The position numbers were made by a program. Positions 42,001 through 48,000 of a stretch of DNA of 64,000 nucleotides are shown here, in pieces. Position 1 is the stretch's first letter; each line of letters opens with the position of its first letter. The stretch is taken from NCBI RefSeq assembly GCF_054482525.1, contig NZ_CM137006.1; one strand, written 5' to 3'.

Positions 42001-45000
42001 GATCCACCGGCGCTGGCGTTTGCTAATAATCTTCATCCAACGAGCGGTGCGGCGGCGCTCTCTTACGCCACTGTCTATCCGTTAGTGATGTTCCTGCGCA
42101 TTATCACCCCCCAATTACTGGCGGTGCTCTTCTGGAGTATCGGTTAACTCTTTTCCGGGTGGAGTCGCCGTAAATGGTACTCCACCTGGTATTCGTTGGC
42201 ATTTCTGAACATTACTGAATAATTCAAAAACTCCCCGCTCTCGCTATATGACAACGAGGTGATCCGCAGCAGTGGCGTGTGTTCCGCTACCTTCATTTGC
42301 CGCGCCAGCAGTCTATCGGCGAGCACCGGCGTCAGGCTTTCATAATTACCGCCAATCAGAATCCCGCACTCTTGTTCAATATATTCAAACTTCGACCCTT
42401 CCAGATGTTGCAGCGAAAGGTTACGGAACAGTTTTACCGGCATATAGCTGTCTTCCAGCATCAGCGGTTTCCCTTCCACAAAACGAACGCGACGGGAGAA
42501 GTAGATCTGCTCGTTGATTTGAATCCGTAACTGGCTGGCAATGGCCGGAGGCGCAGGCATGATTTCAAAAATCAGCACCTGGCTGGTGACCGTTTTTCCC
42601 TGGCGTTTTAACACCTCCACCAGCCCGGTCAGGCTGGCGGTTTGATGCAATACATCTTTGCGCACCAGGTAAGTGCCGCTACCGTGGCGGCGGACCACCA
42701 GCCCCCACGCTACCAGCAGGTCAATGGCTTTACGGATGGTCATCCGCGATACCGCAAACTCTTCCGCCAGCTTTTTTTCACCGGGAAGAAGGCTGTTTAG
42801 CGTGAAATCTGCGGAATTAAGTCGAATTCTTAACCGCTCCGCAATGCTTTTGTAGATCATCTCTAGATCTCTTTTTTGCCTGCAAGCCCGGGTAACGCGC
42901 CCACAAGTTCTGCTTAATCGATTGAAAAAACATCTTTTTTTTAAAGATGTGTTCGATGCTGTGTACCAGTGCTCACAGATGTCTACTTTTTTGCGAAAAC
43001 GTAGATCTCTACCGCCCAACGAAAAGCATGAAAGCGATCACGAATCCCACTGGGTCGTCATGTTCTGCCGATCGCATCTTCCTATCCTCGCTCCAGGCCT
43101 GCCGCATAACCAATCAGGCTTCCTACTTACAGAATTGAGAAAAGAGGATGTGGAAATGCTCAGTCAAATTCAACGCTTTGGCGGCGCGATGTTCACGCCA
43201 GTGCTGCTGTTTCCCTTCGCCGGGATTGTGGTGGGTCTTGCCATCTTGCTGCAAAACCCGATGTTTGTCGGGGAATCACTGACCGATCCGAACAGTTTGT
43301 TCGCGCAAATCGTACACATTATTGAAGAGGGCGGTTGGACGGTATTCCGTAATATGCCGCTGATTTTTGCTGTCGGTTTACCCATTGGCCTTGCTAAGCA
43401 AGCGCAGGGGCGTGCTTGTCTGGCGGTGATGGTGAGTTTCCTGACCTGGAACTATTTCATCAACGCGATGGGAATGACCTGGGGAAGCTACTTCGGCGTC
43501 GATTTCACTCAGGACGCGGTGGCTGGTAGCGGGCTGACAATGATGGCTGGGATTAAAACCCTCGATACCAGCATTATCGGCGCGATTATCATTTCCGGCA
43601 TTGTGACGGCGCTGCATAACCGTCTGTTCGATAAAAAACTGCCGGTTTTTCTCGGCATTTTCCAGGGGACGTCTTATGTGGTGATTATCGCCTTCCTGGT
43701 GATGATCCCCTGCGCCTGGCTGACATTGCTCGGCTGGCCAAAAGTACAAATGGGGATTGAATCTCTGCAAGCGTTCCTGCGTTCGGCGGGTGCGCTTGGG
43801 GTGTGGGTTTACACCTTCCTCGAACGTATTCTGATCCCAACCGGTTTACACCACTTCATCTACGGACCGTTTATCTTTGGTCCGGCAGCTGTTGAAGGCG
43901 GCATTCAGATGTACTGGGCGCAGCATCTGCAAGAGTTCAGTTTGAGCGCCGAGCCGCTGAAATCGTTGTTCCCGGAAGGCGGTTTTGCCCTGCACGGTAA
44001 CTCAAAAATCTTTGGTGCCGTGGGCATTTCTTTAGCGATGTACTTCACTGCCGCACCGGAAAATCGGGTAAAAGTGGCGGGCTTGCTGATCCCCGCAACC
44101 TTAACCGCCATGCTGGTGGGAATTACCGAACCGCTGGAATTTACCTTCCTGTTCATTTCACCGTTGCTGTTTGCGGTACACGCCGTGCTGGCGGCCTCAA
44201 TGTCGACCGTGATGTACCTCTTTGGTGTGGTGGGCAACATGGGCGGTGGTTTGATTGACCAGGTTTTACCGCAAAACTGGATCCCGATGTTCAGCAACCA
44301 CGCGGATATGATGCTGACCCAAATCGCCATTGGGTTGTGCTTTACCCTGCTGTACTTCGTGGTTTTCCGCACCCTGATTCTGCAATTCAACATGTGCACG
44401 CCGGGACGTGAAGATGCGGAAGTGAAACTCTACTCAAAAGCCGAATACAAAGCCTCGCGAGGCCAAACCACCGCTACAGAGCCAAAAAAAGAGCTGGATC
44501 AGGCTGCCGGTATCCTGCAAGCCCTGGGCGGGGTCGGCAATATCTCCAGCATTAACAATTGCGCGACGCGTTTACGTATTGCACTGCATGACATGTCACA
44601 AACGCTGGATGACGAAGTCTTTAAAAAGCTGGGAGCGCACGGCGTCTTCCGTAGTGGCGATGCCATTCAGGTGATCATTGGTCTGCATGTATCCCAGCTG
44701 CGTGAACAGCTCGATAGCTTAATTAATTCTCATCAATCAGCAGAAAATGTTGCCATTACGGAGGCAGTATAATGACCAAATTCTCAGTGGTTGTCGCAGG
44801 CGGTGGAAGCACCTTTACGCCAGGCATCGTGTTGATGCTCCTGGCGAATCAGGACCGTTTCCCGCTTCGTGCACTGAAATTTTATGATAACGATGGCGCG
44901 CGGCAGGAAGTGATTGCTGAAGCCTGTAAAGTCATCCTTAAAGAGAAAGCGCCGGACATTGCGTTTAGTTACACCACCGATCCTGAAGTGGCATTCAGCG

Positions 45001-48000
45001 ACGTTGATTTTGTCATGGCGCACATCCGCGTCGGCAAATACCCGATGCGCGAACTGGATGAAAAAATCCCGCTGCGCCACGGCGTTGTTGGTCAGGAAAC
45101 TTGCGGACCCGGCGGAATAGCGTACGGCATGCGTTCCATTGGCGGCGTCCTGGAACTGGTGGATTATATGGAAAAATATTCACCAAATGCCTGGATGCTC
45201 AACTACTCCAACCCGGCAGCCATTGTCGCAGAAGCCACGCGTCGTCTGCGCCCGAATGCGAAAATCCTCAACATCTGTGACATGCCAATCGGTATTGAAA
45301 GCCGGATGGCGCAAATTGTTGGGCTGCAAGATCGCAAACAGATGCGCGTGCGCTACTACGGCCTGAACCACTTTGGCTGGTGGACATCAATTGAAGATTT
45401 GCAGGGCAACGACCTGATGCCCCAGCTGCGGCAATATGTCTCTAAGCACGGTTATGTTCCACCGCAGCAAGATACACATACTGAAGCGAGCTGGAACGAC
45501 ACCTATGCAAAAGCGCGGGATGTCCAGGCACTGGACCCGGATACATTACCAAACACCTATCTGAAATATTATCTCTTCCCGGATTATGTCGTTCAGCATT
45601 CCAACCCTGAACATACCCGCGCGAATGAGGTGATGGAACATCGCGAGAAACAGGTTTTCGATGCTTGCCGCGCCATTACGGCGGCAGGAAATTCAGCGGC
45701 GGGCAAGCTGGAAATTGACGAACATGCGTCATACATCGTCGATCTGGCGGCGGCAATTGCCTTCAACACTCAGGAGCGGATGTTGCTGATTGTGCCTAAC
45801 AACGGGGCAATCCATAACTTTGATGATGAAGCGATGGTCGAGATCCCGTGTCTGGTCGGGCACAACGGACCAGAACCACTGGTGGTCGGCGATATCCCGC
45901 AGTTTCAGAAAGGGTTAATGAGTCAGCAAGTGGCGGTGGAAAAACTGGTCGTGGACGCCTGGGAACAGCGTTCATATCAGCATCTGTGGCAGGCGATTAC
46001 TTTATCGAAAACGGTACCGAGCGCCTCAGTCGCCAAAGCTATTCTGGATGATTTGCTGGAGGCCAACAAAGCGTACTGGCCAGAGTTACGTTAATTGTGT
46101 GGACTGGCATCCGTTGGGTGCTGGTCCGTATTCTTTAGCACGGCTGACGGCGCATAACCAAATTTATGTTTAAAGGCTTTGCTGAAATGAAAGGAGTCGA
46201 AGAAGTTGAGCGTATCAGCGACTTCGCCAACCGAGTTCCCTTGTTGCTTTAATAGCGATAGCGCCAGATCCAGACGTGCATCGAGGTAATATTCTTTCGG
46301 CGTCTTGCCGGTATAGCGTAAAAACAGACGACGCAACCAGGCTTCGCTACAGGGGATCGTGGCAGCCATATCAGCTACGCTCCAGCGTTGTTGCAGACTG
46401 GCATGTAAAGTGGCAATTAGTTTTTCAATTTGCCGCCGTTGTGGATCTTTTTTACCGTCTGAGTACATAAGACAAATCCACTGATAAATAATTTTCGTCA
46501 GAAAAGCGACTGCCAGATTATTTTTTATTGCTTCTGGTGAAGTAATTAATTCAGCAACTTCGGTGAGTTCCTGATTATAAACTTCGCCATTATAAATAAC
46601 GCTTTGCTGACCGACGGGAATATCCATCATACTGGTGGGGGTAAATTCCATCCAGTACTGTTCCCAGACTAAACCTTCACAGTGATAAGAGTGAATATCC
46701 ATTGGCTTTAAAAATATAATACAGTTGCCATGCAGTGTTATTTGTTCACCATTCTTTAAAATAATTTTCCCACATCCTTGTACGGTATACACCGCAACCC
46801 ATGAGTTGGCGATAAGCGGTTTCTTCTTGTCCCTCGGCCAGATCACCCGATAATGCTCGTCGGCGTAGGTATGCCAGAGCGAGATCAGAGAAATTCCGCT
46901 GGAGATCACATTTTCGTTAATCAATAAGGGAATATTGTACGGAGTTTCGTTTTTTACATCCGAACTTTGCAATTTTCCATTCATTTTAATATCCCTCCGG
47001 CGAATTATGCTCACAACCTGAACTTAACAGAAAACAATCCGTTCAGGGATACGACGTTTGTATTTTAAGAATCTGACTGCCTGACCCGACGCATTTTACC
47101 TCTCCCTATATTCATGCGTCCGGGACATAAACATAAATAAGGGCTATGAGATGAATTCGTTACAAATCTTGAGTTTTGTCGGTTTTACGCTGCTGGTGGC
47201 GGTCATCACCTGGTGGAAGGTCCGCAAAACAGATACCGGATCGCAACAAGGCTATTTTCTTGCCGGACGTTCACTAAAAGCGCCGGTTATTGCCGCTTCG
47301 TTAATGTTAACCAACCTTTCCACGGAACAACTGGTTGGACTTTCCGGGCAGGCCTACAAAAGCGGCATGTCGGTGATGGGCTGGGAAGTCACTTCTGCGG
47401 TGACGCTGATCTTCCTCGCGCTAATCTTTTTACCGCGCTATCTGAAGCGTGGCATTGCCACCATCCCCGATTTCCTGGAGGAACGTTATGATAAAACGAC
47501 GCGTATTATCATCGACTTCTGCTTCCTCATTGCCACCGGTGTCTGCTTTCTGCCGATTGTTCTCTACTCCGGCGCGTTGGCGCTCAACAGCCTGTTTCAC
47601 GTCGGGGAATCGTTACAAATTTCCCACGGCGCAGCGATCTGGCTACTGGTTATTTTGCTTGGTATGGCGGGAATTTTGTATGCGGTGATCGGCGGACTGC
47701 GCGCAATGGCAGTGGCAGACTCCATTAACGGTATTGGGCTGGTTATTGGCGGGTTGATGGTGCCGATATTTGGCCTGATCGCGATGGGCAAGGGCAGCTT
47801 TATGCAGGGCATTGAGCAACTCACCACCGTTCACGCCGAGAAATTAAACTCAGTCGGCGGCCCGACCGATCCCTTGCCGATTGGCGCGGCATTTACCGGT
47901 TTGATTCTGGTGAACACCTTTTACTGGTGTACAAATCAGGGCATCGTGCAACGCACACTGGCGTCAAAAAGCCTGGCGGAAGGGCAAAAGGGGGCGCTGT

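Follow-up and report, generated by a model that had tools for sequence, protein, structure and literature searches.

Genes and proteins of the glv locus

We analysed the glv locus in a window of 64,000 nucleotides, the whole stretch taken from contig NZ_CM137006.1 of RefSeq assembly GCF_054482525.1; all positions refer to this window. The six-frame list of open reading frames (ORFs) contains two adjacent frames on the plus strand, neither of which has an internal stop. The first starts with the ATG at 43156, ends at 44772 and encodes a permease of the phosphotransferase system (PTS), a 538 aa EIICB that is the uninterrupted counterpart of glvC and glvB in Escherichia coli K-12. The second (44772–46094) encodes a 440 aa protein of glycoside hydrolase family 4 (GH4) and is the intact counterpart of the K-12 glvG pseudogene. 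The EIICB start codon is preceded by the ribosome-binding site AAGAGGA. The ATG of the hydrolase gene overlaps the stop codon of the permease gene (TAATG) and has a GGAGG 8 nt upstream, an arrangement typical of translational coupling. The genome of E. coli PCN033 is 100% identical to this stretch and carries the same two coding sequences (CDSs) in its RefSeq annotation. An earlier reading made from the sequence alone, in the following called the sequence-only reading, had described two uninterrupted frames of these lengths between yidP and yidL. Both statements held: the ORFs are intact with full domains and recur in PCN033, and the neighbours are a GntR/UTRA gene on one side and on the other yidL, which encodes an AraC-type regulator (46091–46984, minus strand; identified by Pfam and as a RefSeq CDS).

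The permease combines PTS_EIIC (PF02378, residues 10–346) and PTS_EIIB (PF00367, residues 453–482) in one chain and has no IIA domain. Against TIGR02005, the model for alpha-glucoside-specific IIBC proteins, it scored 958.9 bits with a cutoff of 607.3 and covered profile positions 1–524 of 524. It stayed under the cutoffs of the glucose (316 bits, cutoff 592), MalX (277 bits, cutoff 632), N-acetylglucosamine and beta-glucoside models; for the beta-glucoside and arbutin models the scores were ∼45 bits with cutoffs above 600. GITE occurs at residue 322, and the cysteine loop of the IIB domain (CATRLR) at residue 469. The roles of GITE and of the C-(A/I)-T-R-L-R cysteine motif are established from IICB-Glc. 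The codon for Cys469 in the context NNCATRLRI (44560–44562, plus strand) is the predicted IIB phosphorylation site, based on the position of the motif within PF00367. The protein can thus be assigned by its profile matches to the alpha-glucoside-specific PTS EIICBs (TIGR02005; Glc family, TC 4.A.1).

For the GH4 protein we obtained 223.6 bits with Glyco_hydro_4 (PF02056) and 190.1 bits with Glyco_hydro_4C (PF11975). It aligns without gaps to two solved structures, the 6-phospho-alpha-glucosidase 6DUX (89.7% identity) and Bacillus subtilis GlvA (1U8X, 73.2%). Residues 10–13 read GGGS and the protein contains CDMP, which we take to be the signature of alpha-specific members. C169 and D170 (the Cys-Asp of CDMP), H200 and Y263 align with C171, D172, H202 and Y265 of GlvA; in GlvA the cysteine and histidine are Mn2+ ligands and the aspartate and tyrosine are catalytic. 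The structure matches to alpha enzymes had E values of 3.6e-276 and 1.7e-225, compared to 3.3e-61 or weaker for 6-phospho-beta-glucosidases. The protein is accordingly nearer to the alpha- than to the beta-specific members in these comparisons, and we classify it as a predicted 6-phospho-alpha-glucosidase (EC 3.2.1.122).

The divergent gene yidP (42144–42860, minus strand; Pfam, and a RefSeq CDS in PCN033) encodes a GntR/HutC-family regulator with an N-terminal winged helix-turn-helix (GntR, PF00392, 74.1 bits) and a C-terminal UTRA effector domain (PF07702, 106.9 bits). YidP shares 80% identity with the GntR regulator found at the equivalent position in Klebsiella pneumoniae and probably acts as the repressor of the operon. 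The control region between yidP and the permease gene spans 42861–43155. In a five-sequence alignment a block at approximately 42979–43090 is conserved in E. coli, Klebsiella and Enterobacter. Its conserved columns include the inverted hexamers GTCTAC (42981–42986) and GTAGAT (43001–43006), 14 nt apart, which form a candidate GntR-type operator (42981–43006). We infer that YidP might bind this GTCTAC-N14-GTAGAT element. The block also contains the CRP-like sequence CATGAAAGCGATCACG (43027–43042, plus strand), which has three mismatches to TGTGA-N6-TCACA and is followed at a distance of ∼50 bp by a conserved TATCCT (43083–43088). Across the window, 206 such CRP-like matches occurred where chance predicts 219, so the pattern shows no enrichment. 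The CRP and sigma-70 sites are weak candidates, suggested by their conservation across genera.

Comparison with K-12 and distribution in E. coli

At this locus the MG1655 annotation lists glvC (368 aa), glvB (161 aa) and, as a pseudogene of 815 bp, glvG. The base-by-base alignment revealed only two disabling differences. The first is a C to T change at window position 44260, which converts codon 369 (44260–44262, plus strand) from CAG to TAG; Gln369 becomes an amber codon and EIICB is split into GlvC and GlvB. The annotated GlvB is the downstream portion of the EIICB frame, restarting at Met378. The second is a deletion of 508 bp (45365–45872, plus strand) by which codons 198–367 are lost, the frame is shifted and glvG is destroyed. 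The deleted segment is flanked by an 8 bp direct repeat, GAACCACT, with copies at 45365–45372 and 45873–45880. Besides the amber, the EIICB genes of the window and K-12 differ in 18 synonymous codons and two amino acids. The sequence-only reading had described the K-12 locus as split or pseudogenised and had proposed this alignment as a check; the K-12 frames are indeed broken and those of the window are without a frameshift.

The current name of the permease also reflects the K-12 state. RefSeq calls the full 538 aa protein 'PTS sugar transporter subunit IIB'. This name comes from NF007255, an equivalog of 161 positions whose match is limited to residues 378–538. These residues correspond to the GlvB fragment of K-12, and TIGR02005 supplies the correct name of an alpha-glucoside IIBC. 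The naming looks like an annotation artefact that stems from using K-12 as the reference.

We then determined how common each state is among 5,426 complete E. coli genomes, counting the locus as present if at least 80% of the query was covered. It was present in 4,267 genomes. The 508 bp segment, and with it an undeleted hydrolase gene, was found in 1,649–1,652 genomes, which by difference leaves ∼2,600 carriers of the deletion; the whole cassette was absent from ∼1,150. An exact 61-mer containing the K-12 amber occurred in 348 genomes, and the three of these that were listed are laboratory or laboratory-type strains. All 24 sampled rows with the undeleted gene were annotated as 6-phospho-alpha-glucosidase. 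In O157:H7 EDL933 both genes are intact and have frames of the same length as in the window; EIICB differs in 20 synonymous and one non-synonymous codons and the GH4 gene in 17 and three, respectively. Each of the nine sampled deletion carriers outside K-12 keeps the full EIICB gene of 1,617 nt together with an 815 bp remnant flagged as frameshifted, and in O111:H8 the deletion junction is identical to that of K-12. The window shows the ancestral state, which is common to roughly 30% of the genomes. As ∼1,650 of the 5,426 genomes share it, intactness is no mark of an unusual strain.

In strains without the cassette, such as Nissle, the stretch 42194–46123 is missing. Nissle has ∼49 bp of unrelated filler in its place (positions 4951–5001 of its locus, L005) and retains the last ∼50 bp of yidP. 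This remnant, together with the synteny in Klebsiella, indicates that the cassette was lost by deletion and was not absent ancestrally. We infer that the ∼1,150 cassette-less genomes, like Nissle, are without yidP and the whole glv cassette. The yidL gene of Nissle is also shorter (867 versus 894 nt), with an altered 3' end.

A comparison of ten loci (L001, L004 and L008–L015) placed the identical 508 bp deletion on at least two flanking haplotypes, part of each of which also occurs in intact alleles. One deletion on two or more haplotypes points either to recurrence at the 8 bp repeat or to spread by short-tract recombination. It seems improbable to us that the repeat acts as a hot spot at which the deletion recurs, or that the orphan permease has been retained for some function independent of the hydrolase. 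We considered whether purifying selection continues to act on the orphan EIICB in deletion carriers and rejected this: the ratio of non-synonymous to synonymous polymorphism (pN/pS) was 0.058 for EIICB and 0.066 for the dead GH4 remnant. As the dead remnant behaves in the same way, the signal reflects older polymorphism and not ongoing selection. Some GH4 remnants have decayed further: two strains have GTG in place of ATG at the start, and three have gained an additional nonsense codon.

Proposed function and alternative explanations

We interpret the locus as an intact ancestral alpha-glucoside operon, orthologous to Klebsiella aglA-aglB and equivalent to B. subtilis glvC-glvA, and judging from the sequence comparisons we give this a probability of roughly 0.85. 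EIICB would import an alpha-linked glucoside such as isomaltose, palatinose, other sucrose isomers or methyl-alpha-glucoside, and possibly maltose or maltitol. A relay from phosphoenolpyruvate (PEP) via EI, HPr and IIA-Glc (Crr, whose gene lies elsewhere) to Cys469 in the IIB domain would phosphorylate the O-6 of the glucosyl unit. With NAD+ and Mn2+, the GH4 enzyme would then cleave the 6-phospho-alpha-glucoside, releasing glucose-6-phosphate and the aglycone. Until an inducer occupies its UTRA domain, YidP would probably repress the operon. K-12 has lost the pathway in two steps, with a deletion in the hydrolase gene that is common to many other strains, followed by a permease amber that is confined to K-12-type genomes. 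By analogy with the characterised relatives, we expect the substrates to be sucrose isomers, isomaltose and methyl-alpha-glucoside. The sequence-only reading had proposed a functional uptake and hydrolysis system for an alpha-glucoside. The structural part of this claim is confirmed, and the functional part is plausible in view of the open frames, the catalytic residues and the small number of non-synonymous changes.

Several observations weigh against a working operon. A simple scan of the intergenic region returned no strong sigma-70 consensus. In a VITEK panel (PMC9631374) an O157:H7 reference strain scored negative for palatinose, and both genes are intact in the O157:H7 strain EDL933. Some 70% of E. 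coli genomes have a damaged locus or none, which suggests that it is often dispensable. The same observations favour an alternative in which the genes are intact and the operon is cryptic: YidP or a weak promoter would keep it off, there would be no phenotype under normal conditions, and the operon would be less far along the path of decay that K-12, phylogroup A/B1-type and B2 strains have taken. The three independent kinds of loss within the species fit this picture, and the low pN/pS of EIICB is no proof of current selection, given the equal value of the dead GH4 remnant. On the other hand, ∼1,650 genomes hold both frames open, with 24 of 24 sampled rows named as the enzyme, the regulatory block is conserved over three genera, and a single rapid acidification test with a single substrate is weak evidence. 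We regard a cryptic operon as unlikely, though it is an alternative to be taken seriously.

We weighed two further explanations. The sequence-only reading had named arbutin among the possible substrates, and an older K-12 annotation attached the same label to glv. Arbutin is a beta-glucoside. The best family match of the permease is the alpha-glucoside IIBC model, and its scores with the beta-glucoside and arbutin models are far below their cutoffs; the enzyme carries CDMP, is 90% identical to a solved 6-phospho-alpha-glucosidase and matches 6-phospho-beta-glucosidase structures with E values of 1e-61 or worse. Arbutin is consequently not expected as a substrate, and the sequence-only reading was wrong on this point. 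Specificity within the family is not absolute, as B. subtilis GlvA/GlvC unexpectedly gave growth on sucrose and gentiobiose (PMC5309279), and still a system for arbutin or other beta-glucosides appears very improbable. We assign an even smaller chance to the intactness itself being an artefact caused by an overlooked lesion, a misplaced start codon or a misassembly. We found no support for this among our results, and the frames have the same lengths in PCN033 and EDL933, the hydrolase aligns gaplessly to two solved structures, TIGR02005 is covered end to end, and ribosome-binding sites precede both start codons.

The intact glv state is already known, as the polymorphism is visible in the RefSeq annotation and the defects of K-12 are long established in the literature. 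Literature searches on glvG/glvC, yidP and the use of palatinose or turanose by E. coli phylogroups yielded no work on the intact locus in E. coli. The alpha-glucoside operon reading corrects the substrate guess from arbutin to alpha-glucosides such as isomaltose and isomaltulose, and it shows that K-12 serves poorly as a reference here. A further prediction is that sucrose isomers, which are now common food sweeteners, may be usable by ∼30% of E. coli, among them O157:H7 and the PCN033-like strain of the window. Beyond housekeeping the importance is little, and we consider this an ordinary strain difference.

We also noted features elsewhere in the window. Positions 1–25000 carry type III secretion effector genes (espY4, a toxin of the ShET2/EspL2 family and others) near tnaA and yidC; only 1,086 of the 5,426 genomes cover this part to at least 80%, so it includes a variable island. 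Rfam matches above the gathering score were istR (54021–54150), AsdA, which is antisense to the dnaA mRNA (23542–23622), the ROSE thermosensor upstream of ibpA (39271–39343) and the small RNA ES036 (29099–29141). All four are expected in this part of the E. coli chromosome.

Comparison with known systems

The closest known systems include the K-12 genes themselves. glvC, glvB and glvG (b3683, b3682 and b4556) occupy the same locus with DNA that is 98–99% identical to the window, and the regulator and control region match except for six substitutions. The difference lies in the Gln369 amber and the 508 bp frameshifting deletion, both of which are missing from the window.

The gene order on the K. 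pneumoniae chromosome is yidE, GntR regulator, IIBC, GH4 and yidH, and Enterobacter hormaechei has the same core from the GntR gene to yidH. This shared order and the identities to K. pneumoniae of 81% for the permease and 80% for the regulator indicate that the locus is the E. coli orthologue of Klebsiella aglA/aglB in its ancestral position. AglA/AglB with the divergent GntR regulator have the same three-gene layout and the same chromosomal position beside yidE, and neither system encodes a IIA domain. In contrast to Klebsiella, the operon is polymorphic in E. coli, where it is known here from sequence, and E. coli has a yidL-yidK-yidJ-yidI insert. These four genes (AraC regulator, sodium:solute symporter, sulfatase and membrane protein; window 46091–51000) separate the hydrolase gene from yidH, which in Klebsiella and Enterobacter follows directly 3'. 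AglA/AglB allow E. coli K-12 to use methyl-alpha-glucoside, isomaltose and five sucrose isomers (PMC5309279). AglA works with the IIA-Glc of the host, and the same study describes the K-12 homologues as 'cryptic or nonfunctional truncated proteins' (PMC5309279). The K. pneumoniae record compared here, CP125156.1 (L006), is labelled 'plasmid unnamed2' in PLSDB; its 5.37 Mb and chromosomal genes suggest a chromosome under the wrong label. The GH4 gene of this record was matched in two pieces with no listed CDS and may be frameshifted in that strain.

The maltose PTS of B. subtilis, GlvA (MalA; 1U8X) and GlvC (MalP), shares the GH4 catalytic residues and the EIICB architecture. When expressed in K-12, both GlvC and K. 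pneumoniae AglA couple the uptake of alpha-glucosides to phosphorylation and depend on the separately encoded IIA-Glc (PMC5309279). The B. subtilis system differs in its Gram-positive host, its regulator (GlvR) and a more distant permease. Within E. coli, PtsG (IICB-Glc; 8QSR) and MalX have the Glc-family PTS fold, GITE and the IIB cysteine loop in common with the permease of the window. They are, however, only distant paralogues, as EIICB falls below the cutoffs of both the glucose and the MalX models.

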